From positions 8,507-72,506 of the forward strand of contig JBFMAL010000003.1 of the NCBI GenBank assembly GCA_040755615.1: a stretch of DNA of 64,000 bases, given 5' to 3'. Both the position numbers and the translations under genes were made by a program. Shown in pieces: positions 4,587 through 63,810 of this stretch (its first letter is position 1; every line of letters begins with the position of its first letter). The notes below the pieces were generated by a model. That model saw only the letters and a program-made list of their open reading frames with translations. It did no database searches and was not told the origin of the DNA. The DNA comes from Bacillota bacterium. GTDB lineage: Bacteria > Bacillota > Sulfobacillia > DUSP01 > DYEP01.

Positions 4587-5121
4587 GCGTTAATAATAGG
4601 AAGATCACGAGTCTGCCTGGGCCGTGCACTCCAAGGGTCAGCTCGCGTTCAATATCGGCGGTCCTGCTCGGACCGGTCACCATCGCCACGTATGCCGGAG
4701 GCCGCGGTCGCACGTACATACGGGAAAGCGCTGTGGCCATATCAGGTACGAGGTCATCCGAGTTCAGGATCGCCACGTGCACGGGCGGAAGTGATGAAAC
4801 CAGCCGGGCGTCGTACGTGCTGGCGTCAGCCACCAGGGTCCCCGTATCCGCCACGCCCATTTCATAGCAGCATATCCCGAGCGCTGCGCCCGCGGCCGAA
4901 CATTTGTCAACGGGCAAGACTTCCACTCCCGCCTCACGAAGCGCTTCCTCGACCTTGCGCTCTATCAGTCCGCCCCCGCCTACCACAGCGGAAGAAAGCC
5001 CATGATCCCGTGCCAGGCACACGATCTGTGCGCTGAGCTCACCGAGGCCCCGCGACTCTTTCACCTCTGCCGAAGCCGCCGAAGCTGATTTCTTAAAGAC
5101 CTCTACCAGATCCCCGCTCAT
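4546..5121 (-). CDS. lutC: LutC-like LUD-domain protein. Start placed at the internal ATG (MSGDLVEV…).
   Basis: LUD/DUF162 signature …GVADTGTLV…; lies in operon with lutB/lutA. The longer ORF (start 5187) overlaps the upstream gene by 95 nt. Confidence 0.6.
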   Translation of the reverse strand: MSGDLVEVFKKSASAASAEVKESRGLGELSAQIVCLARDHGLSSAVVGGGGLIERKVEEALREAGVEVLPVDKCSAAGAALGICCYEMGVADTGTLVADASTYDARLVSSLPPVHVAILNSDDLVPDMATALSRMYVRPRPPAYVAMVTGPSRTADIERELTLGVHGPGRLVIFLLLTRDGDGGACDGLQP

Positions 5122-6403
5122 AGCCCTGGTCTTCCCTACCTTCCGCCCTGTACGACATGGCGACAAGTTCCAGCGTGTGCATGACACGGGTTCCTATACC
5201 CGCCTGGTGTGATGCATCCTCGATCTGCATTCGGCACGCGCCGCACCCAGTCGCGACCGCGGCGGCTCTGGTCTCCCGTATACTCCGGAGCTTTTGCTCC
5301 GTGATGGAAAGCGATAATGCGTAATGAGACAGCGAAAACGACCCGGCTCCTCCGCAACATCTATCTGCCAACGCCATCTCGCGAAACTCCATGCCCGGGA
5401 TAGCTGCAAGCAGCCGTCGCGGCGCCTCGTACACACCCTGCCCGCGCAACAGATGACACGGGTCATGGTAGGTGACGCTCATCGAAATCCTTCCCTCTGG
5501 AGGGCGGTACCCAGCCTTCACCAGGTACTCGGAGATGTCGTACGTCCTTGCCGCCCACCGTCTCGCGGCATCCTCCATGGGCCCCCCCTCGCATAGCGCG
5601 GGGTAATGCTTCTTCAGCGCGCTGCCGCACGTAGCGCACGCCGTGACTATCGCATCAGGCCTGTACTTTTCAACAACCTGCAGGTTATATCCGGCCATTT
5701 GACGCGCTGTGATTACATCTCCGTTAGTAAACACGGGCGTGCCGCAACAATGCTGCTCCCCAGGCAGCAACACCCGGGCACCGTTTCTCTCCAACACCTC
5801 GAGCACAGCTCGCCCGACCCCGGTGTACACGTAGTTGATAAGACAACCTGTGAAGAACAGCACCCGAGCACCGCGCGCACCCCGGTCCTCATTCACGGTA
5901 GCGGATTTCAGAAAGGGGGTGGGCGCAAGCCTCGGCACGACCCGCCGCATGCTAATACCCAGCGGTAGCCTGGGCCTTCCGCCTGGCCCCGGATCCGACC
6001 GGAACAGAAGCGGCCATGTTCGCGCACCCGCATGGAGCAGGGCGCGAAACAGCGAAGGGTTATGAAGCAACCCCCGGAACACAAGCCACCGGAGCCCACC
6101 GAGGCCTCTCTGCCTCGCAGCCTGGACCCTGGCACCAAGGAAGATCTCCTCGGTCATCACTCCGGTGGGGCATCCGGCAGCGCATCCAAGACACAACGTG
6201 CATGTATAAAGCCTGTCCACCGCTGTGCGCGACCAGGCCATCTCGCCGTCCCTCACCGCCTTCACCAGCCTGATCTTGCCCCTGGCCGCTACTGACTCGG
6301 TGAACAGTCTCTTGTATATGGGGCAGTGGGCCTGGCAGAAACCGCACCTGACACACTGCTTCAGCATCCTGTCAAGCAGGGCGGGGTCATCGAAATAGCT
6401 CAT
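5093..6403 (-). CDS. GlcF-like Fe-S subunit (2x4Fe-4S plus two CCG domains) of a glycolate/D-lactate oxidase
   Basis: CVRCGFCQAHCP…CTLCLGCAAGCP, then CCG-type cysteine motifs (FFTGCL…, VTACATC…, YHDPCH…, CCGGAG). Confidence 0.75.
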   Translation of the reverse strand: MSYFDDPALLDRMLKQCVRCGFCQAHCPIYKRLFTESVAARGKIRLVKAVRDGEMAWSRTAVDRLYTCTLCLGCAAGCPTGVMTEEIFLGARVQAARQRGLGGLRWLVFRGLLHNPSLFRALLHAGARTWPLLFRSDPGPGGRPRLPLGISMRRVVPRLAPTPFLKSATVNEDRGARGARVLFFTGCLINYVYTGVGRAVLEVLERNGARVLLPGEQHCCGTPVFTNGDVITARQMAGYNLQVVEKYRPDAIVTACATCGSALKKHYPALCEGGPMEDAARRWAARTYDISEYLVKAGYRPPEGRISMSVTYHDPCHLLRGQGVYEAPRRLLAAIPGMEFREMALADRCCGGAGSFSLSHYALSLSITEQKLRSIRETRAAAVATGCGACRMQIEDASHQAGIGTRVMHTLELVAMSYRAEGREDQGYERGSGRGL

Positions 6404-6406
6404 GTG

Positions 6407-7795
6407 TCACACCTCCCCGACCAGCTTGCCGGGGTTGAAAAGGCCCTTTGGATCCAGCGCCCGCTTCACCGCCCTCATAGCCGAAAGCGCCGCCTGGGAA
6501 AACTCCATCTCCATGTACTTCTGCTTGGTACGCCCGATCCCGTGCTCGCCGGAAAGCGTACCTCCGAGCTTCAGTGCCGCTGCATAGACCTCGTCGATAG
6601 CCTGCCTTACCCGCACCATCTCCTGCTCATCGCTGATGTCCGTCAGTATCGTGGGGTGAAGGTTGCCGTCTCCCGCGTGCCCCATCGTACCTATGATGAC
6701 CCCATACTTCTCCGCTATCGTCCTGATTTCTTTTAGCATCTCGGGCACCCGGTTTCTTGGTACCGTAGCGTCCTCTACCATCATGGAGGGACGCACCCGG
6801 GACAGCGCAGGCAGCGCGGTCCGCCTCGCCGTCCAGAGCTGCTCTCTTTCCCTTTCAGTCTCCGCAAGACGCACAAAAGAGGCGCCCGAGTCAAGCAGCG
6901 CGGCCATGACTTTCGCAGCTTCTCGCTCCACTGCCTCTTTCACCCCGTCTACCTCAATGAGGAGTATTGCAGCCGCGTCCAGCGGTAGCCCGCACCTGTT
7001 ATATTCCTCAACTGCGCGTATCGTGGTGTTGTCGAGTATCTCCAGCGTCGCGGGGATCACGCGGCCCTCAATGATCCGCGCGACAGCCCTTCCCGCAGAG
7101 TCAAGGTCCAAAAAGGCTGCCATCATCGTCCGACGATACTCGGGCAAAGGCAGCAGCTTGACGGTGATTTCGGTGATGATCCCCAGCGTACCTTCGCTCC
7201 CGGTAAAGAGGTGCACCATGTCATAGCCGCTCACGTTCTTCACCGTCTTACCGCCGAACCGGGCCATTTCACCATCAGGCAGTACAACCGAGAGCCCAAG
7301 CACATAGTGCTTGGTCACCCCGTACTTCAATCCCCGCAACCCGCCGGAACACTCGGCGACGCTGCCGCCCATTGTGGCCTGGGCCACAGTCCCCGGATCC
7401 GGAGGATACATCAGGCCATACGGCGCGCACGCGTCGTTTAAGTCCTGAATGATCACGCCAGGCTCCACTGTGGCAGTGAGGTTGTCGGTGTCCACTTCGA
7501 GAATGCGGTTCATCCTGAGCAGGGAAACCACCACCCCGCCCCGCTCGGGCAGGGTGCCTCCGCTCAAGTTGGTGCCCGACCCCCTCGGGTACACAGGTAG
7601 AGAGTACCTGTCCGCTATACGTACCACGGCCTGTACCTCGCCTGCGGTCTCGGGCATCACGATCACACCCGGGACGTGCTCGTCGAGACCGCCCGCCGCG
7701 TCAAACGCGTAGCACACCAGGTCCTCGATGTCCGTCAGCACTCTGTCTCTGCCCAGCGCGTCGCGCAGTTCCCTTATCACTTCAAAGGAGAGCAT
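6407..7795 (-). CDS. glcD: FAD-linked oxidase, GlcD / D-lactate dehydrogenase family
   Basis: FAD-binding PCMH motifs (…VYPRGSGTNLSGG…), C-terminal GTLSGEHGIG. Start moved to the internal ATG at 7795, which has a GGAGGTG ribosome-binding site. Confidence 0.8.
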   Translation of the reverse strand: MLSFEVIRELRDALGRDRVLTDIEDLVCYAFDAAGGLDEHVPGVIVMPETAGEVQAVVRIADRYSLPVYPRGSGTNLSGGTLPERGGVVVSLLRMNRILEVDTDNLTATVEPGVIIQDLNDACAPYGLMYPPDPGTVAQATMGGSVAECSGGLRGLKYGVTKHYVLGLSVVLPDGEMARFGGKTVKNVSGYDMVHLFTGSEGTLGIITEITVKLLPLPEYRRTMMAAFLDLDSAGRAVARIIEGRVIPATLEILDNTTIRAVEEYNRCGLPLDAAAILLIEVDGVKEAVEREAAKVMAALLDSGASFVRLAETEREREQLWTARRTALPALSRVRPSMMVEDATVPRNRVPEMLKEIRTIAEKYGVIIGTMGHAGDGNLHPTILTDISDEQEMVRVRQAIDEVYAAALKLGGTLSGEHGIGRTKQKYMEMEFSQAALSAMRAVKRALDPKGLFNPGKLVGEV

Positions 7796-7934
7796 GAGCG
7801 ACACCTCCAGTCCGAAAGTCCCCGCTGTATGGATTCCATGCCGGATTTCCGTTTTCCTGTCCCCCCGGTCTTGAAAGGCCTGCAGGAGATCGGGGAATAC
7901 ATTAAGAAACATGAAAAGACTGGAGGTGTGGTAC

Positions 7935-8774
7935 ATGGAGCAGTTTGTGGCGAGTGCAGTTCAAATCAGCGCATCGCCCATGGCCGTTGATGATAACATG
8001 GAGAAGGTCATCTCCTGGTACAGGGAGGTCAGGTCTTCCCGCAACGCGGACTTGATTGTATTTCCCGAGACCGTCACAACCGGGTTCAACCCGGGAAACA
8101 GGGCAGGCGAGCTATGGGAACTCGTCGACACCATACCCGGCAAGCTCACCGAGCGCATCGAGAAAGAAATGAAAAGAAGCGGGGGTTACGTGGTGTTCCC
8201 CACCTACGAACGCGGATCTCTGCCGGGGGTCGTGTACAACGCGGCGGTGCTCATCGGTAGCGAGGGCATCGTCGGCGTCTACAGGAAGACCCACCCGTTC
8301 CCCGGGGAAAAATGCTGGGTCACGCCTGGACAGGAGGCGCAGGTATTTGAGACCAGCCTGGGCCGCATTGGTATGATCATCTGCTATGACGGGGACTTTC
8401 CCGAGCTCTCGCGGCTGCTTAAGCTGAAAGGCGCCGAGATCATCGTGCGCCCCTCTGCGTTCCTCAGAGACCACGGGCTGTGGTCGCTGACAAACCAGGC
8501 ACGCGCATATGACAACCAGGTGTGGGTAGTCGCCACCAACAGTATCGGCACTGACGCGGCAGGCTATCACTACTTCGGCCACAGCATGATCGTATCCCCG
8601 CACGGCCAGGTGGTGGCGTCGGCGCGCGGGGTGGAAGAGTCCGTGGAAGCGCTAATCGGTCCGGGCGTAGATCCGCGTCACGGCAAGACCATCCCACTGG
8701 TGGATCACGTGGGGGATCTGAACTCAAGGGTGCTCTCTGAGCTTGCCGGCATCTACGGGCAGATGAAGGACTAG
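7935..8774 (+). CDS. Carbon-nitrogen hydrolase family protein (nitrilase/amidase superfamily)
   Basis: …LIVFPE… (Glu), …RKTHPF… (Lys), …MIICYDGDFPE… (Cys). ATG at 7935 sits behind GGAGGTG. Confidence 0.75.
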   Translation: MEQFVASAVQISASPMAVDDNMEKVISWYREVRSSRNADLIVFPETVTTGFNPGNRAGELWELVDTIPGKLTERIEKEMKRSGGYVVFPTYERGSLPGVVYNAAVLIGSEGIVGVYRKTHPFPGEKCWVTPGQEAQVFETSLGRIGMIICYDGDFPELSRLLKLKGAEIIVRPSAFLRDHGLWSLTNQARAYDNQVWVVATNSIGTDAAGYHYFGHSMIVSPHGQVVASARGVEESVEALIGPGVDPRHGKTIPLVDHVGDLNSRVLSELAGIYGQMKD

Positions 8775-56223: not shown

Positions 56224-56541
56224 TCAGCCCACATCAAACTCCGCGCCGTCCGCAGCTACCGGAAACTCGACCTCTTCCAGCCGCGCGAGAGTCTCCGGGC
56301 CCAGGTGAGTGAGGACTATCTTTGAGGCTCCGAGGCGCTCCTTTCTGGCCGTCAGGACGGCATGGCTGAGGTGGTTTTTCAGTTCCCGATCAATAGTATA
56401 CGCGTCGGCGATCAGGAGATCCGCCCTCCAGGAAGCCTCGATCAAGGTGTCGGTCCAGGCGGTATCGCCCGTATAAGCGATTACCTTGCCCTCCACCGTC
56501 ACCCGCAGGGCGAGTGCGGGAGCGCAGCCGGGATGGTGCAC
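56224..56541 (-). pseudogene. MBL-fold metallo-hydrolase, C-terminal fragment only
   Basis: …GKVIAYTGDTAWTD… and …VLTHLGPE…. The N-terminal half is replaced by the IS66 fragment. Confidence 0.45.
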
Positions 56542-56559
56542 CTCGAAGGGGGTGACGGT

Positions 56560-56863
56560 CAGGGTTGTCCACCATTTTCAGCGTGTGGCCGGGATGCCCT
56601 TTTTGCCCGCCGCTTTTCTTGCCGCTCTTTTCCCTGAGGCTCTTGGTTTTCCTCTTGAAGCCGTCGCTGGAAGGGGGCTTGCTGCTGTTCCTGCTGTTCT
56701 GGTTTAGCTGATTTTCTAGTTGCTTGACCCTTGCCTCAAGGATGGTAATCTGCAGGGCCTGCTGCTGGTAAATGCGCTCAAAGTTTGCGATCAGGCCCTT
56801 CACCAGGGCGACTACTGCCTCGGGTCCCTCATTGTAAACGGCCAGGATTTCCTCCCGTGTCAC
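56560..56863 (-). mobile_element. IS66-family transposase, N-terminal fragment
   Basis: MTREEILAVYNEGPEAVVALVKGL…ILEARVKQLENQL…SSKPPSSDGFKRKTKSL…KSGGQKGHPGHTLKMVDNPD, the hallmark IS66 TnpC N-terminus. It then loses similarity; no DDE domain. Confidence 0.65.
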
Positions 56864-56879
56864 CAGAGATCACCCCCAG

Positions 56880-57655
56880 GCAGGCGTTTTGCCAGAGGAA
56901 GCAGGTACACGGCCTTGACAGGAACCTCAAGATTGTGACAGCGGTCGTTGCGGCTGCGGCCCTTGGTCAGGCCGATGTAGCAGTGCCATGAGCCTCCGGC
57001 GTGCGCCTGGGCTCAAGCGGTACGAAACGGCCTGGACATGGCTTCATAAGCTGCGCCGAGCCATGGTCAAGCCGGGCAGGGATCGTTTGAGCGGCATAAT
57101 CGAGGTGGACGAAACATTCATTGGGGGAGAAGAACCGGGCGTTCGTGGGCGCCAAACGGAGACCAAGGCACTGGTCGTGGTCCCAGGCGAAGTTGATGGC
57201 CGCGGCATAGGTCGAATTCGGATGCAACGCGTTCCAGATGCATCAGCAACAAGTCTTTTGGCTTTCGTAGAGGACGTAGTTGAACGGGGTAGCACTGTCG
57301 TCACAGACGGGTGGGGCGGCTACGCTGAACTCTCCAACCTCGGCTACACCCATGAAGCTAAAGTGCTCCGGGGAAGGGGAAATCGGCTGCGGCCGAACTG
57401 CTGCCACGAGTCCACCGGGCTGTTTCTAATCTCCAGCGGTGGCTATTGGGAACTCACCAGGCAGCTGTTGCACCAAGGCACTTGGATTTCTATCTTGATG
57501 AATTCAACTTTCACTTCAATCGAAGGAAGTCCAGGAGCCGTGGAAAGCTGTTCTACCGCTTACTCCAACAAGCCGTTCAGGTGGATCCGACACCATACCG
57601 GAAACTCATATGGGGTGCCGATGCCGAACCCAAAATTCCCAGTCGTTACCCCTAG
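56880..57655 (+). mobile_element. IS1595-family transposase pseudogene (N-terminal Zn-ribbon lost, frameshift near 57420)
   Basis: …YETAWTWLHKLRRAM…IIEVDETFIGG…VVTDGWGGY… (DDE region). The C-terminal …HLDFYLDEFNFHFNRRKSRSRGKLFYRLL… is in another frame. Confidence 0.6.
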
Positions 57656-57762
57656 ATAGATTCTTCTGAAGAAAGCAGTTTGCCGACTACTCCTCGGCAA
57701 TTGACCCTTGACAATTTGATCATGGTTTGACGTTGCTACCTGGCTTTAGATCAATTTGGCCA

Positions 57763-57870: not shown

Positions 57871-58260
57871 ATGAAAGAACCAATCTGGCTGACACGTGAC
57901 ATCATTGAAACAATCCATCTCGACCTGATTAGGGTGCATGGGGGGCATCTTGGTTATCGCGATGAAAACCTGGTTGAAGCCGCGCTTGCCGGACCGCTTC
58001 ACCGGTGGGACTACGATCCTGACTCAGATCTGCCTACGTTAGCTGCCGCCTATGGCTTTGCTTTTGCCAAAAACCACGGGTTCACAGATGGCAATAAGAG
58101 GGTAGCCTTTATGGCCATGTATGTTTTTCTGGGTTTGAACGGTTATGAGATTACGGCCCCGGAACCGGAAGTAGTTAATATCATTCAGCAGCTGAGCAGC
58201 GGTCATTTAACGGAAAGAGACCTGGCTGATTGGTTGCGCACTTCGATCATCGCGTTGTGA
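57871..58260 (+). CDS. doc: Doc (death-on-curing) Fic-family toxin
   Basis: Fic motif HGFTDGNKR (HxFx[D/N]GNKR); 129 aa. Confidence 0.85.
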   Translation: MKEPIWLTRDIIETIHLDLIRVHGGHLGYRDENLVEAALAGPLHRWDYDPDSDLPTLAAAYGFAFAKNHGFTDGNKRVAFMAMYVFLGLNGYEITAPEPEVVNIIQQLSSGHLTERDLADWLRTSIIAL

Positions 58261-58368: not shown

Positions 58369-59145
58369 TTAGGATGATGACAAACCTGCATAGCGGTAGA
58401 AGGCGTCCACGACCTCCAGTAAATCAGGGGTTAAGATCCGGCGCACTCTTCCCACGATAAAGGGAGGTACCCCTCCGTAAAACGCTTCAGCGATGCCGCC
58501 GGTGATGCACGCGATGGTGTCGCTGTCCCCGCCGATAGAGACGGCTTTGCGGATAGCATCCTCATAGTCCGAGGATTCCAGGAAGGCGATCACGGCCTCG
58601 GGGACCGAGCCCTGGCACGTTCCGTCAAAGCTGTAGCGAGGGCGGATCCGGGCCAGGGTCTGTTCCAGGTTGTAGCCGAATTGAGCGGCCAGGTACTCCC
58701 TTATTTCCTCCTTGCTCTTACCCCGGCGTGCCAGGAATACCGCCGCAGCCACGGCCTGGGCCCCCTTGATCCCTTCAGGGTGGTTATGGGTGACCGCCGC
58801 GCTGCGCCTGGCCTCTCTTAGAACATCTTCCAGGGTGTTAAAGTAAAACCCCACCGGGCTGACCCGCATGGCCGAACCGTTTCCGAAACTGTTATAGGGC
58901 TGCAGGCTGTCGGAGAGCAGCCACCTCAGGAATCTACCCCCGTAGCCCCTGTTCGGGTACCGCCGGCCGTACTCCTTCAGGGTCAGGGCGTAATCCTTCC
59001 CATGGAGGACGCAGTCGGCCACCGCCACCGTCAGCACGGTGTCGTCGGTAAAAGTGGAGCCCGGGTTGAAAAGGGCAAAATCAGTTTTCACATTGTTGGA
59101 CTCAAAAACCGACCCAATGATGTCTCCGGCGATAGCCCCGATCAT
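58369..59145 (-). CDS. ADP-ribosylglycohydrolase family protein (DraG-like)
   Basis: …GAIAGDIIGS…, …FTDDT… and …GGDSDT… metal-binding motifs. ATG 59145 behind AAGGAGGGGAG. Confidence 0.75.
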   Translation of the reverse strand: MIGAIAGDIIGSVFESNNVKTDFALFNPGSTFTDDTVLTVAVADCVLHGKDYALTLKEYGRRYPNRGYGGRFLRWLLSDSLQPYNSFGNGSAMRVSPVGFYFNTLEDVLREARRSAAVTHNHPEGIKGAQAVAAAVFLARRGKSKEEIREYLAAQFGYNLEQTLARIRPRYSFDGTCQGSVPEAVIAFLESSDYEDAIRKAVSIGGDSDTIACITGGIAEAFYGGVPPFIVGRVRRILTPDLLEVVDAFYRYAGLSSS

Positions 59146-59594
59146 AAGACTCCCCTCCTTGGGTATCGTTCTATTAACCGGGTCCAAGCAGCATTGCTCT
59201 TTTTTCCTCCGAGCCGTTTACCGGTCAGTTCTTGGATACTATCGCAGAACCTGCCAAGTTTTCGGGTAGGCATTAAAGCCCAAAAAGCAAGAGGAGTATC
59301 ATTTGTAACAATCTCACCGCGAGGGGACGCACCCTCATTCCACGCAGGTCAGGGCCGCACTGAATTCAAAGCATATTTATCTCCTATAAGAAGAAAAACA
59401 GCACTCTTTCTTCAAGATTACCGTTCCTCTGGGCATGGGGCAAACTTGTTCCCCCCTGCCGAGACTCTTCGGCACCCGTGTATCTGAAAGGTAAGAACCT
59501 TCCGGAAATGGCCATATGGAGGAATTCAGGTTCATCTTGGTGAATGAGTGTTTAACCTTAAAAAGCATACCGCAAAGGAGATAACCCGCCACCG

Positions 59595-60200
59595 ATGATT
59601 GATTTCCGCCAAGAGCTGGCCAAATTCAATTTTGCATCCGTTGATGCCGAGTTTGCCCAGTATCATAATGAGGCAGCACCGCTCATCGAGGCGCTGACCG
59701 CTGTGCTGAAGCGTGTAGGCCGGGAGCTGAACCAGGCCAACCTGCAAATCGAGGAAGCTCTGTCGCTGTTTGCGGAGGAAAAGGAGGCGGAGAGGCGCCT
59801 GGCAGAGCAGAGAAAAATGACCGCCGTTCAGGAAGAAGAGAAACTCTCGCTAATCGAGGCTCTACTGGCTGCCCTGGACCGTCTCGAAGACATCTACCGC
59901 TGTGCCGTGCAAAACGAGTGTGGCAGTTGGTCCGAGCAGATAAAGCTGCTCTGGGACAATACTGCAACAGACCTGCTGGCGCGGGGCATTTTCCGTATCG
60001 AGAGCGAAGGCTCCTTTTTTGACGCGCGAATCCACGCCGCGGTGCAGACTGTGGAGGAGCGCGCCAAGCCGAACGGGACGATCCTCGAGGTGTTACGGTG
60101 CGGGTATATGTACCAGTCGCGCCTACTTCGCAAAGCCCAGGTTGTAGTCAATAAAGTAGATGGAGGTTCTACCAGTAATGAGCAGCATCGTGGGGATTGA
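59595..60200 (+). CDS. grpE: GrpE-like nucleotide-exchange factor (divergent)
   Basis: Long coiled-coil N-terminus and C-terminal beta-domain …GTILEVLRCGYMYQSRLLRKAQVVVNK (compare GrpE …VVEVLQKGY.L.GRVLRPAMVKVAK). Confidence 0.6.
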   Translation: MIDFRQELAKFNFASVDAEFAQYHNEAAPLIEALTAVLKRVGRELNQANLQIEEALSLFAEEKEAERRLAEQRKMTAVQEEEKLSLIEALLAALDRLEDIYRCAVQNECGSWSEQIKLLWDNTATDLLARGIFRIESEGSFFDARIHAAVQTVEERAKPNGTILEVLRCGYMYQSRLLRKAQVVVNKVDGGSTSNEQHRGD

Positions 60201-61893
60201 TCTTGGCACATCCACCTCAGAAATTGCCGTTTTGCGGGACGGAAAGCCGCTGGTCATCCCCAACCACCTGGGGGAATTCGTCACCCCCTCGGTGGTCGGC
60301 CTTTCCGATAACGGGGCCATTGTCGTCGGGAAAGAGGCCCGGGACCAGTTTCTTCTAAAACCCCACCATACGGTCATGGAAGTGAAAAGGCTGATGGGTA
60401 GCGGCGCCACAGTAACCATGGGCGGCAAAGAGTACACTCCGCAGCAGATATCGTCGTTCATTTTGGCCTATCTCATGGACTGCGCCCGCAAGTATCTGGG
60501 TGAAGATATTACCAGGGCGGTGATCACGGTACCCGCCTATTTCTCCGATACCCAGAGACGGGCCACCGTGGAAGCGGGCAAACTCGCCGGGATCACGGTG
60601 GAGCGCATCATCAACGAGCCCACCGCCGCCGCCTTAGATTACGGGATCGAACATATGCGGGAATGCCAGAACATCCTGGTCTATGACCTCGGCGGTGGCA
60701 CCCTCGATGTAACCGTCTTGGAAATGTTCGAAGGCGTTCTCGACGTCAAAGCAAGCAGCGGCAACAACCAACTTGGCGGAAAAGACTTCGACCAGCGGCT
60801 CATGGATTACCTGATGCGCCGCTTTGCCGAGCGGTACACCGCCGATCTTTCACGTGACCCGCGGGCATTGCTGCGCCTGAAAGAAGCAGCGGAGAAATGC
60901 AAGATGGCCTTGAGCGAGCAGGAGGAGTACCACCTGGTGATACCGCTGTTGACTAGCGTAGCGGGCAATCCGGTTTCTCTGGAGGAAACGGTGACCAGGG
61001 AGACTCTGGAAAGCCTGATCAAAGACCTAATCGACTCCACCGCCAAACAGATCCACACGGCGCTGCAAGACTCGCGCCTCAGCGCCGCGGATATCGACCT
61101 GGTCCTCCTGGTGGGCGGCTCCACCCGTATTCCCTATGTACGTCGCTTTATCGAAGAGACGCTGGGGCAGACCCCGCGCTGTCTGGTCGACCCCGACTTG
61201 GCAGTGGTCAGGGGCGCGGCGGTGCAAGGGGGCATTCTCGACGGCCGGCTGTCCGACCGTGGCATTGTGATCACCGATGTGTGCCCGTACACTCTCGGCA
61301 TCTCCGTGCTGGACTACGTCGGCGGTTTCCCCGTTGCCGACGCCTTTGACGTGATTATCCCGCGAAACGTGACCATCCCGGTGATCAAGGAAAAAACCTA
61401 CGGGACGGTGGTCGACAACCAAACCCAGGTGGAGATTAACGTCTACCAGGGCGAATACAGGAAGGCTTCCCTCAATAATTTTCTCGGTAAATTCATGTTG
61501 AAAGGGATCCCGCCGGCTCCAGCTTTTCAGGAGAAAATCGCCGTCTCTTTCGCCTATGACGTAAACGGCATCTTGCAGGTGGAAGGGAAGATAGTCAGCA
61601 CGGGCAAAAAGGCCAACCTGGTCATCGAGACAACAGGCGTGGATATGGTTAACGAGGTCGACCTGGAAGGATGGGAAAAGGCGCCTCACGCCCGGAAATA
61701 CAAGGCCATCATCAAGAGAGCCGAGCGGATGGTGAAAAACGACGAGGCACTGTTTTATGCGCTGGAGATGGAAAGCCTGGTTCGCAAAATCAAGGAAGGA
61801 TTGGTGCGGGGCGACACACCGGAAACCCTCGACCAGTACAAGGAAGAGCTTCACGAGATTATCTATACCCTGACGGAGACACAGGATGATTGA
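60178..61893 (+). CDS. Hsp70-family ATPase, short atypical (HscC-like) form
   Basis: IVGIDLGTSTS, DLGGGTLD, …IDLVLLVGGSTRIP…. Only 571 aa, with a truncated lid/C-terminus. Confidence 0.8.
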   Translation: MSSIVGIDLGTSTSEIAVLRDGKPLVIPNHLGEFVTPSVVGLSDNGAIVVGKEARDQFLLKPHHTVMEVKRLMGSGATVTMGGKEYTPQQISSFILAYLMDCARKYLGEDITRAVITVPAYFSDTQRRATVEAGKLAGITVERIINEPTAAALDYGIEHMRECQNILVYDLGGGTLDVTVLEMFEGVLDVKASSGNNQLGGKDFDQRLMDYLMRRFAERYTADLSRDPRALLRLKEAAEKCKMALSEQEEYHLVIPLLTSVAGNPVSLEETVTRETLESLIKDLIDSTAKQIHTALQDSRLSAADIDLVLLVGGSTRIPYVRRFIEETLGQTPRCLVDPDLAVVRGAAVQGGILDGRLSDRGIVITDVCPYTLGISVLDYVGGFPVADAFDVIIPRNVTIPVIKEKTYGTVVDNQTQVEINVYQGEYRKASLNNFLGKFMLKGIPPAPAFQEKIAVSFAYDVNGILQVEGKIVSTGKKANLVIETTGVDMVNEVDLEGWEKAPHARKYKAIIKRAERMVKNDEALFYALEMESLVRKIKEGLVRGDTPETLDQYKEELHEIIYTLTETQDD

Positions 61894-62464
61894 AAACCTG
61901 TCCCGATGGTATTACAACCAGGGACTGCTCCGGGCCCGATCAGACGAGATCAGCGTGGCGGTGCGCTACCTGGCCAAAGCGGTAAGTTATGACAGCACCA
62001 ACCTGGAGGCCTGGAACCTGGCCGGCCTGTGCTACTACCGGCTGGGCAGCTTTAAGACGGCCGAATTCTGCTGGGCCCGCAGCGTTTCCCTTTGCGGCGA
62101 GGGAAACCCGGCCACAGGCTACTTAAGCGACTTACGGAACGCCCTGGCGGAAAGCGCTCCCCATTTCTCCGCAGTGACCGTACTGTGCGAGCGCGGAGAG
62201 TACGCCCGTGCCGCCGCTGTTGTCGAAGCAGAGCTCTGCACCCGTCTTGGCGAATCGGCAGCCCTGCTCAATTATCTAGGGATCCTGTATGCCCTTGGCC
62301 GTAAGACAAGCGCCGCCCTCCGCTGTTGGACAAACGCCCTGTCCGTCGACAAAGACAATCCCGACACCGCACGCTACCTGGCCGCCATGCAGCGCCGCCT
62401 GAGCTACAAGCTGCTTAAACTGAAGGATAGACTACTGAACAGGAAAGTGGTAACCGACAAATGA
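61886..62464 (+). CDS. TPR-repeat protein
   Basis: Several 34-aa repeats with the W-LG-Y / A-F-A pattern (…[27 protein letters not shown]…). 8-nt overlap upstream and 4-nt overlap downstream. Confidence 0.6.
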
Positions 62465-63810
62465 AGGACTACTACGGCACGCTGAATATCCCCAAAAGCG
62501 CCACGGTTACGGATATCAAAAAGGCCTATTTCGGCCTTGTCCGGAAATACCCACCCGACCGGTACCCCGAGGCCTTTATGAGAATACGGGAGGCCTACGA
62601 GGTCCTGGTGGATGAAAACACCCGCAGGCAGTATGACGAGGTCGACTCCATGCCCGCCGACGTCAAACTTTACTTTGACGCGGGGCGCCAGGCCCTGGAC
62701 CGGGGAGACGCTGCGGAAGCGATCCGGCTTTTGGAATGGGTAGTCAAATCCCACCCGCACTTTTCGGTTGTCAACAGCCTGCTCGGTGAGGCTTATTTGA
62801 AAAACGAAAACAGTGGTAAAGCGATCCGCATCTTTGAGGAGCTGGTGGCACAACAGCCCAACCACGCCGGTTTCGCCCGGCAGCTTGCCCAGGCTTACGC
62901 CATGCGCGGCTGGCATAAGAAAGGCATTGAACAGTACCGCCGGGCGCTGTCCCTCGACGAAGACAACCTTTCCCTCTGGCTGGGGCTGATCGACTGTCAC
63001 CTCGCGGTGAAGGACTTTGCCCAGGCCGTTGAGACAGTCATGGAAGGGCTGGAGGTCAGCAACAGAAAAGGCTGGGACAATCTCGAGCTGTATTACCACA
63101 TGATTCAAATCGACATTTACTCCCAAGATCACTTGAACATGCGCAAGCATCTTGAAGAGATGAAGAACAGGGCCATGCAAAGTGATGTCGATCGAGGCAA
63201 TGTGGCCTGGTTTTTAGCATATCTCTCTCAAAGAATCCATAGCCTCGGCCTGTTCGAAGAGTCGGCGGCGACCATTGACGCCGCCTCGGCTCTGCTTCCT
63301 GATGATGAAGAAATCGCCGAGATCAAGAAGGAGATAGACGTCAAGACCGTAATCCTGGGAGAACTGAAAAAACTTGAAGCGGACCACTCCATCAACAGCC
63401 TTTTGGCGGAAATGCTCGACTTTGAGCTACACATGTGTGGAAACAAATTCTGCCTTGAGTGTCCCATCACGCAGTTTTTCTTCGAGGCGGAGATTGTTGC
63501 GGAGCTTGCGACTTTCCGCCGAGATATCGCGCGCCTGAAATCAGCATATCCCCAGCTCTATAACCTCAAGAAAGAGTTTTTTGATCTTGCTTTAAACCCC
63601 AAAAAAGAAGATTACTTATTTGAAACATGCTACAAGAAATACAAACGCTATAAGAAGCTGGCCCCCAAGATGTTTGAATCTGAGGACGACGAAGAGGAGG
63701 ACGAATTCTTCCCTCAACCGTACACCCGGCCCGGGCCGAAGGTGGGGCGCAACGACCCGTGCCCCTGCGGAAGCGGGAAGAAATACAAGAAGTGTTGCGG
63801 CAGGTCTTGA
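62461..63810 (+). CDS. J-domain protein with TPR repeats and a C-terminal SEC-C metal-binding motif
   Basis: J domain [35 protein letters not shown] (HPD replaced by PPD); central TPRs; C-terminal …[18 protein letters not shown]. Confidence 0.75.

Follow-up and report, generated by a model that had tools for sequence, protein, structure and literature searches.

Background

The closest described counterpart of the locus reported here is the HscC system of Escherichia coli, in which the Hsp70 HscC is stimulated by DjlC, a J protein with a membrane tail anchor, but not by DnaJ (Kluck et al. 2002; reviewed in PMC8215388). The locus is a cassette of four overlapping genes in a 64,000-nucleotide (nt) stretch of contig JBFMAL010000003.1 from a Bacillota bacterium (assembly GCA_040755615.1); this whole stretch is henceforth referred to as the window, and all window positions are counted from its first letter. 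The cassette encodes a GrpE-like nucleotide exchange factor, a short Hsp70, a small tetratricopeptide repeat (TPR) protein and a J-like co-chaperone that carries TPRs and a C-terminal SEC-C motif. We propose, with a probability of roughly 0.6, that its genes form a translationally coupled operon encoding a second, specialised Hsp70 machine that is tethered and self-sufficient.

HscC and the cassette Hsp70 share a length of 550-580 amino acids (aa), a TD(V/I)CPY linker, an insertion in loop L1,2, a deletion of the D211 loop, a short lid and an acidic/aliphatic C-terminus. Their co-chaperones are likewise similar: both DjlC and the cassette J protein are dedicated class C proteins with the same short loop, a non-canonical tripeptide, an acidic linker and a putative C-terminal localisation element, and in both systems the genes are clustered. 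The systems differ in nucleotide exchange, as the GrpE signature is missing from E. coli HscC, which presumably works without GrpE, whereas the cassette keeps the subdomain IIB loop, a salt bridge and a GrpE gene. They also differ in the J protein, where DjlC has an HPE tripeptide and a transmembrane tail anchor and the cassette has PP[DE] and a SEC-C metal-binding motif. The long TPR solenoid on the J protein, the additional small TPR protein, the separate Hsp70 subclade and the different phylum further set the cassette apart.

The housekeeping hrcA-grpE-dnaK-dnaJ set resembles the cassette in that an Hsp70, a GrpE-type factor and a J protein are encoded together and the IIB loop is kept, and the closest solved relatives are Geobacillus DnaK (2V7Y) and GrpE (4ANI). 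In contrast to the housekeeping set, the cassette has an HscC-type linker, substrate-binding domain and lid, scores below equivalog cut-offs and lacks HrcA and the CIRCE operator (controlling inverted repeat of chaperone expression). Compared with housekeeping DnaJ, the cassette J protein has no glycine/phenylalanine-rich region, zinc-finger domain or C-terminal client-binding domains and has lost the His-Pro-Asp (HPD) tripeptide. A second Hsp70 co-transcribed with a dedicated GrpE, as in the cassette, is known from Myxococcus xanthus (MxDnaK2 and its own GrpE, MXAN_6671/6672; PMC11019930). However, MxDnaK2 is a DnaK-type paralogue, and its operon contains neither a J-like/TPR/SEC-C gene nor a small TPR gene.

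We found no description of the cassette in the searchable literature, in a search that did not include the survey of Barriot et al. (2020, J Mol Biol). This agrees with an initial reading of the nucleotide letters made without database searches (the sequence-only reading), which had called the system undescribed. HscC-type Hsp70s and HPD-less J domains are each known; new is their combination with a private GrpE, TPRs, a SecA-like tail and an extra TPR protein. A large survey of J proteins removed non-HPD sequences before analysis, and the cassette J family was thus overlooked by surveys that discarded such sequences. According to a 2026 review, HPE is the only tolerated variant known, and other HPD-less J proteins are described as “enigmatic”.

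A conserved four-gene cassette in Clostridia

The cassette consists of four open reading frames (ORFs) on the + strand, with consecutive overlaps of 23, 8 and 4 nt:

59595-60200, + strand: GrpE-like nucleotide exchange factor, 201 aa, first gene of the operon (Pfam GrpE)
60178-61893, + strand: HscC-type Hsp70, 571 aa (Pfam HSP70, HscC-type indels, tree, AlphaFold model)
61886-62464, + strand: small TPR protein, 192 aa (Pfam TPR_2, TPR_1, TPR_16)
62461-63810, + strand: J-like/TPR/SEC-C co-chaperone, 449 aa (Pfam DnaJ, TPR, SEC-C)

The sequence-only reading had described four tightly overlapping genes for a GrpE-like protein, a short Hsp70, a TPR protein and a J-domain/TPR/SEC-C protein. The overlaps are confirmed by the ORF coordinates, and all four identities are matched by Pfam profiles. 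This holds also for the private exchange factor, whose Pfam GrpE gene overlaps the Hsp70 gene from upstream, and for the separate TPR protein between the Hsp70 and J genes, in whose 192 aa Pfam TPR repeats were found. The start of the Hsp70 gene was set at 60178 on the basis of orthologues and the GenBank record, despite an in-frame ATG upstream at 60160. Identical protein sequences with the same starts are present in GenBank (MEW6242959-62, from a Bacillota metagenome-assembled genome (MAG)) under the names “nucleotide exchange factor GrpE”, “Hsp70 family protein”, “hypothetical protein” and “tetratricopeptide repeat protein”. No CIRCE operator was detected in the window at ≤3 mismatches, Pfam scans found neither hrcA nor a class-A dnaJ adjoining the cassette, and a scan for an operon promoter and terminator gave no signal above chance.

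This four-gene unit recurs well beyond the window. The order GrpE-like protein, Hsp70, TPR protein of ~190 aa and J/TPR/SEC-C protein was found at about 35 independent Bacillota loci, including Alkaliphilus metalliredigens QYMF, Fusibacter sp. 3D3 and Caldicoprobacter guelmensis, ~30 metagenome loci (every one that reaches far enough upstream) and the loci L139-L141. The GrpE-like gene is the first gene of the cassette at each locus with sufficient upstream DNA. At nearly all loci the gene junctions overlap or lie a few bases apart, which indicates translational coupling. All-against-all BLAST of the flanking ORFs showed that the flanks are unrelated except among close relatives. Such a recurrent gene arrangement is far from what chance would give. 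Full-length relatives of the J/TPR/SEC-C protein number in the hundreds, and all the named sources are Bacillota (Peptococcaceae, Dethiobacter, Clostridiales, Fusibacter, Alkaliphilus, Caldicoprobacter and Clostridium); relatives of the Hsp70 come from the same taxa and additionally from Herbinix and Clostridiaceae. The cassette is spread across Clostridia-class Bacillota.

The surroundings of the cassette are variable and often mobile-element-rich, and many loci have ordinary metabolic neighbours. No recurrent flanking family, partner or candidate client gene was detected by BLAST of the flanking ORFs or by Pfam and PADLOC searches of 144 flanking proteins. Viral contigs yielded only unrelated J-domain matches, and the cassette is not phage-borne.

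A three-gene variant occurs in Oscillospiraceae (L005, positions 4630-8383, and L006). It comprises the GrpE-like protein, the Hsp70 and a J/TPR/SEC-C protein with PPE, without the small TPR gene. At L005 it lies immediately downstream of rpoC. These loci emerged from a contig pattern search with the SEC-C motif, which returned mostly SecA-like tails from all phyla and for which L005, L006 and L008 were the informative loci. At L008 (6899-7996) we observed a J-less relative of 365 aa with TPRs, a helical domain and SEC-C, and no Hsp70 gene nearby, indicating that the TPR/SEC-C module exists also independently of a J domain. An orphan HPE-type J/TPR/SEC-C gene was observed at L142 (5001-6359), with no adjoining GrpE, Hsp70 or TPR genes. 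The orphan is directly downstream of an RRXRR/HNH endonuclease gene, and a similar RRXRR/HNH gene lies downstream of the HPD-type cassette at L140 (5334-6389).

An Hsp70 with HscC-type features

The Hsp70 matches the Pfam HSP70 profile with 528 bits and falls below the DnaK equivalog cut-offs (553.7 versus 648 bits for NF001413 and 549.8 versus 822.55 for TIGR02350); its NCBI name is “Hsp70 family protein”. The sequence-only reading had noted that it is shorter than DnaK and lacks the C-terminal lid tail, and this proved accurate. Its 571 aa are 67 fewer than the 638 of E. coli DnaK, and the AlphaFold model (predicted local distance difference test (pLDDT) score 83) has a lid of three helices at residues 505-566, where DnaK has five, and no long disordered tail. 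Orthologues are 563-578 aa long, inside the HscC-type range of 550-580 aa.

We compared the protein with the HscC hallmarks given by Mayer (PMC8215388). The linker of the window protein is IVITDVCPYTLG, not the DnaK-type VLLLDVTPLSLG. It reads I-V-I-T-D-V-C-P-Y, and I-x-I-T-D-V-C-P-Y across the cassettes, compared with VILTDICPY in HscC and VLLLDVTPL in DnaK. Loop L1,2 of the beta substrate-binding domain has ~8 more residues than in DnaK, at the HscC insertion site, in all the cassette Hsp70s; the HscC insertion comprises 4-8 residues (PMC8215388). The D211 loop is deleted, with gaps at DnaK positions 208-211 in 34 out of 34 cassette Hsp70s, and in the alignment the helix-B region is gapped as in HscC. 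There is also a 24-residue gap in the DnaK 76-101 region with the HscC boundaries, although this deletion is common in non-proteobacterial DnaKs too and is hence non-discriminating (PMC8215388). The catalytic and allosteric residues D8, K70, E171, D194, T199, D201, R167, Q378, D393 and P419 are invariant in the 34 cassette Hsp70s; the ATPase domain is complete, with an intact active site and intact allosteric residues.

To place the family we used a neighbour-joining tree of 117 Hsp70s, comprising cassette members, representatives from a 1.84-billion-protein library, and E. coli DnaK, HscA and HscC. In this tree the cassette clade lies within a large HscC-containing branch of ~570-aa Hsp70s with TD(V/I)CP(Y/F) linkers, apart from the DnaK/HscA branch. 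It forms a distinct subclade to which the Oscillospiraceae variant is sister. Raw identities are similar for the three references (40% to DnaK, 39% to HscC and 36% to HscA). Judged from the indels, the linker and the tree, the Hsp70 appears to belong to the HscC-type branch and to be neither DnaK nor HscA. The sequence-only reading had likened the system to specialised HscC/DjlB/DjlC-like Hsp70 systems rather than the housekeeping one, and these features, together with a DjlC-like short loop in the J protein, bear it out. As to the phylogenetic position, the tree places the cassette clade in the HscC-containing branch but in a different subclade from that of E. coli HscC.

The Hsp70 ends in a recurrent motif:

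61843-61890, + strand: Hsp70 C-terminal motif, hydrophobic-hydrophobic-Tyr/Phe followed by an acidic end (orthologue tails)

The pattern hydrophobic-hydrophobic-[YF]-x-hydrophobic is present in 82 of 117 orthologues, whose last 8 residues include on average 4.4 acidic ones. In the model the aliphatic part of the tail is inside the last lid helix and only ~5 residues are disordered. The Oscillospiraceae-variant Hsp70s do not have the hydrophobic-Tyr-acidic motif. In the 50%-identity library, many atypical Hsp70s of ~560-600 aa (representatives P0123-P0261) end in ...ELTD(L/I)L(F/Y)(E/D)L(E/D), and such a tail seems to mark a very large non-DnaK assemblage of Hsp70s.

A dedicated GrpE-like protein

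The GrpE-like protein matches Pfam GrpE over profile positions 7-165 of 165 with 85.1 bits (cut-off 25.8), and its residues 19-186 align full-length to Geobacillus GrpE 4ANI (E=2e-10). It is far below all the NCBIfam GrpE equivalog cut-offs (56.7 versus 176), which identifies it as a divergent subfamily. On the side of the Hsp70, the loop of subdomain IIB (the “GrpE signature”) is DnaK-like in length and sequence. The E267-K55 salt bridge is retained (E267 in 33 of 34 and K/R55 in 31 of 33 cassette Hsp70s), unlike the lower salt bridge and the hydrophobic patch, which have disappeared. The kept GrpE-contact loop and one salt bridge of the cleft fit a dedicated GrpE.

A J-like protein with PPD in place of HPD

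The J-like protein comprises the following parts:

62467-62637, + strand: J domain, aa 3-59 (Pfam PF00226, 57 bits)
62551-62559, + strand: PPD tripeptide replacing HPD (CCACCCGAC reads PPD)
62656-63300, + strand: TPR solenoid, aa 66-280 (Pfam TPR, helix pairs in the model; invariant loop motifs NxNSGKA, RGWHKKA and LDEDNxSLW)
63307-63675, + strand: helical C-terminal domain, aa 283-405, no Pfam family (confident model helices)
63676-63732, + strand: acidic disordered linker, aa 406-424 (pLDDT <50 at 409-420; least conserved part, 0.44)
63748-63804, + strand: SEC-C / SecA-like metal-binding motif, aa 430-448 (Pfam PF02810)

The architecture given by the sequence-only reading, a J protein with central TPRs and a C-terminal SEC-C motif, is recovered by the Pfam profile search, which matches DnaJ, TPR and SEC-C. 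The match to PF00226 covers profile positions 1-63 (cut-off 27.8 bits). In the AlphaFold model of the whole protein (pLDDT 89), residues 1-62 form a four-helix J domain with helices at 4-7, 16-29, 36-50 and 52-62 (pLDDT 85-91).

The reading of PPD instead of HPD holds as well, as the codons are CCA CCC GAC, and it is family-wide. Among 114 aligned members the tripeptide is PPD in 82, PPE in 17, SPE in 5, HPD in 3, PSD in 3, DPE in 2, HPE in 1 and PAD in 1. PP[DE] thus accounts for 99 out of 114, and a histidine is present in 4 (3.5%). The best conserved parts of the protein are SEC-C (mean column identity 0.94) and helix II-loop-helix III (0.78). That PP[DE] predominates and that the J domain and SEC-C are best conserved indicates that the substitution is selected and is not decay. 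The loop from the tripeptide to helix III is six residues shorter than in DnaJ and identical in length to that of E. coli DjlC (HPE-TDPQG-F in DjlC, PPD-RYPEA-F in the cassette), and the position of DnaJ K26 is hydrophobic in both.

The HPD relatives at L139-L141 are in ordinary four-gene cassettes. HPD and PPD interchange, as the Hsp70 of one HPD cassette is 96% identical to that of a PPD cassette. We found no Hsp70 column that co-varies diagnostically with HPD versus PPD; positions 207 and 420 (DnaK numbering) differ in one matched pair, a difference that is uninterpretable.

The SEC-C motif, CxCxSG(x8)CC/H at the extreme C-terminus, matches PF02810 with 40.1 bits (cut-off 20.4), and its four cysteines are invariant in 114 of 114 members. 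It follows the acidic linker, the same place as the membrane anchor of DjlC. It is nearly identical, including a conserved serine, to the motif of AscA/YecA, which is a chaperone, and of the SecA C-terminal domain; the N-terminal domains of AscA and SecA are unrelated to the cassette J protein. We know of no Hsp70 link for AscA or SecA. A cysteine triad, CxxxxCxxC (C326/C331/C334, window 63436-63462), lies in a loop of the helical C-terminal domain and is preceded by a histidine in the window protein. Of the 114 members, 73-75 (~65%) have the triad; it is lost as a unit in the distant third and may be a second metal or redox site.

The combination of a J domain and a TPR array in one co-chaperone is found in DNAJC7/TPR2 and DNAJC3/P58IPK. 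In these, the J domain is C-terminal and has HPD, whereas in the cassette protein it is N-terminal and has PPD, and the cassette Hsp70 tail is not EEVD. In DNAJC7, a contact between the TPRs and EEVD is required for J-domain action (PMC13254874). No specific homology of the cassette protein to DNAJC7 or DNAJC3 was detected beyond generic TPR similarity, and a Foldseek search of its model against the PDB returned generic TPR superhelices only, including P58IPK, with no specific fold for the C-terminal domain. A J fold that is kept while the HPD signature is lost is also seen in Pam16, DNAJB13 and Plasmodium type IV proteins. Those proteins are eukaryotic, and their relationship to Hsp70 is unclear or inhibitory. 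In hundreds of bacterial genomes, by contrast, the cassette J-like gene is coupled in translation with genes for a cognate Hsp70 and GrpE, and only the histidine of the tripeptide is replaced.

The small TPR protein

All the four-gene loci have a gene for a protein of ~180-200 aa between the Hsp70 and J genes, with 26-58% identity. Carboxylate-clamp residues were not identified. The C-terminus of the Hsp70 is acidic but is not EEVD, and the C-terminal motif is absent from the three-gene variants without the small TPR gene. In E. coli K-12 the hscC neighbourhood (L086, 677415-683393) comprises djlB, ybeT, ybeU, djlC and hscC, and YbeT is a 184-aa protein of the TPR-like Sel1 class. We considered YbeT as a counterpart of the small TPR protein and rejected it: the two have no similarity and the N-terminus of YbeT is signal-peptide-like.

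Genes upstream of the cassette in the window

A Fic/Doc-family toxin gene at 57871-58260 (+ strand) has no recognisable phd antitoxin ORF upstream. It is directly after a frameshifted IS1595-type transposase gene and an IS66-like DUF6444 fragment (56988-57659, + strand, and 56390-56863, − strand), and it looks like an orphaned toxin amid decaying insertion sequences (IS), just upstream of the chaperone operon. An ADP-ribosylglycohydrolase gene (58369-59187, − strand; Pfam E=1.6e-39) is divergent to the GrpE-like gene, 407 nt upstream of it, and is not kept beside the cassette at other loci.

Proposed mechanism and alternative explanations

In the tethered machine that we propose, the J-like/TPR protein would dock on the ATP-bound Hsp70 via helices II and III and the retained Pro-Asp/Glu, against the equivalents of Hsp70 R167, Q378 and P419, and would trigger ATP hydrolysis without the histidine. 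In the DnaK-DnaJ complex, DnaJ H33 bonds with the main chain of L391 in the linker, P34 is packed against P419, and D35 forms bonds to R167 and Q378. As the proline, the Asp/Glu and the three Hsp70 contacts are kept and the linker is changed as in HscC, a functional, His-independent J domain is favoured. The strong conservation of the J domain likewise argues for a functional domain. The SEC-C motif would position the machine at ribosomes, Sec components or the membrane. Metal-binding domains of the SecA type take up zinc or iron and attach to ribosomes, SecB and membranes (bioRxiv 10.1101/613315 and 10.1101/2020.07.21.215244), activities that are known for E. coli SecA and YecA only. The TPR modules may bind clients or the acidic Hsp70 C-terminus and may add avidity, and the private GrpE would reset the Hsp70. 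A more specific version, which we consider doubtful, is a site-tethered Hsp70 triad of Clostridia comparable in function to the eukaryotic ribosome-associated complex or to DjlC-HscC at the membrane. Here the HPD-less J protein would activate the dedicated HscC-type Hsp70 with no need for the histidine, SEC-C would dock on the ribosome or the Sec machinery, and the private GrpE would free the system from the housekeeping network.

Several observations weigh against the proposed tethered machine. HscC-type Hsp70s are characterised by the lack of a GrpE signature loop, salt bridges and a GrpE partner, and the cassette departs from this. Its Hsp70 keeps the GrpE-contact loop of DnaK and to judge by its residues is not purely HscC-like. 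The tree is a simple neighbour-joining one with neither bootstrap nor maximum-likelihood support, and it does not make E. coli HscC the sister of the cassette clade. To our knowledge most Bacillota have no SecB, which bears on SEC-C as a Sec-linked anchor. That the small TPR protein reads an EEVD-like Hsp70 tail was an attractive idea, since neither is present in the three-gene variants. The idea is weakened by the wide occurrence of the motif in atypical Hsp70s and by its position mostly inside the last lid helix, and we know of no TPR partner for atypical Hsp70s with an acidic/aliphatic tail.

The possibility that the cassette is the housekeeping DnaK-DnaJ-GrpE set in divergent form draws on the presence of Hsp70, GrpE and J protein classes in one operon, and no other dnaK was seen in the window or in the flanks searched. 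We nevertheless consider a housekeeping role very unlikely on indirect evidence from the proteins and the locus: the Hsp70 and GrpE are under the equivalog cut-offs and the former is an “Hsp70 family protein” in NCBI, the cassette Hsp70s have HscC-type indels and architecture, the window locus has no hrcA, CIRCE or class-A DnaJ, and the neighbourhood changes from genome to genome, often with many mobile elements. A dnaK gene is found in 98.9% of bacterial genomes, and the genomes listed as having two DnaK-type genes include those of Dethiobacter alkaliphilus, Pelotomaculum spp. and Desulfotomaculum copahuensis (PMC11019930 and its supplementary tables). Our J-protein matches include a Dethiobacter MAG and Peptococcaceae MAGs. 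We take Pelotomaculum and Desulfotomaculum to be related to the latter.

The mobile surroundings could instead mean that the cassette is cargo of variable or defence islands, with a stress or conflict role such as phage defence or metal and redox sensing via SEC-C and the cysteine triad, and would be no constitutive tethered chaperone. Defence and mobility genes do occur near it: Wadjet JetA/B/C-like genes and a Y1 transposase (L003, 1-3852), JetD (L004, 17033-17389, and L115, 15406-16656), SIR2 and DruA (L139, 476-2045), HicAB (L141, 5732-6418), the RRXRR-HNH gene near the L140 cassette, and doc with IS fragments in the window. Sensitivity to Cd2+ and UV is described for hscC mutants of E. 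coli (PMC8215388), iron binding is known from SecA-like metal-binding domains, and YchJ, which also carries SEC-C, has been reported as a sensor of reactive oxygen species. Against this, no defence family recurs beside the cassette (maximum 4 out of 144 flanking proteins), the cassette is missing from viral contigs and many loci have ordinary metabolic neighbours, and we regard this explanation as improbable. A PADLOC search of the cassette proteins themselves did not support a defence system: the SEC-C tail gave weak matches to the PDC-S12 and E2 models, and the GrpE, Hsp70 and small TPR proteins matched no model.

A different role for the J-like domain is less easily set aside, although we still think it unlikely. 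The domain may be non-stimulating, as the sequence-only reading had supposed from the missing HPD, and may serve to regulate or anchor in the manner of a “type IV” domain such as Pam16 in its relation to Pam18. It would then hold or position the Hsp70, with hydrolysis triggered by substrate alone or by housekeeping DnaJ. The histidine of HPD is missing in ~96% of members, H-to-Q and similar changes abolish stimulation in all the tested systems with HPE the only exception known (2026 review), and the first position of the tripeptide varies (P, S, D, Q, T, H) as though it were not catalytically critical. On the other hand, the cassette encodes only this one J protein, its helix II-loop-helix III stretch ranks among the best conserved segments, and the Pro and Asp/Glu of the tripeptide and Hsp70 R167, Q378 and P419 are invariant or nearly so. 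Help from housekeeping DnaJ is not expected, as none of DnaJ, CbpA and HscB stimulates E. coli HscC (PMC8215388).

Implications

The cassette places a proline where the supposedly indispensable histidine of HPD would be, under purifying selection and beside a cognate Hsp70, and so offers a natural test of J-domain function in which the rare natural HPD revertants are built-in controls. HscC-type Hsp70s are thought to be GrpE-independent, and the cassette branch keeps the GrpE-contact loop together with a dedicated GrpE. The SecA-type tail of the J protein hints that an Hsp70 is connected to the ribosome or the Sec pathway, in bacteria that generally have no SecB. A Gram-positive relative of HscC with explicit adaptor domains could help to find the clients of HscC. 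As a compact and conserved operon that can be expressed in the laboratory, the cassette challenges three textbook expectations.

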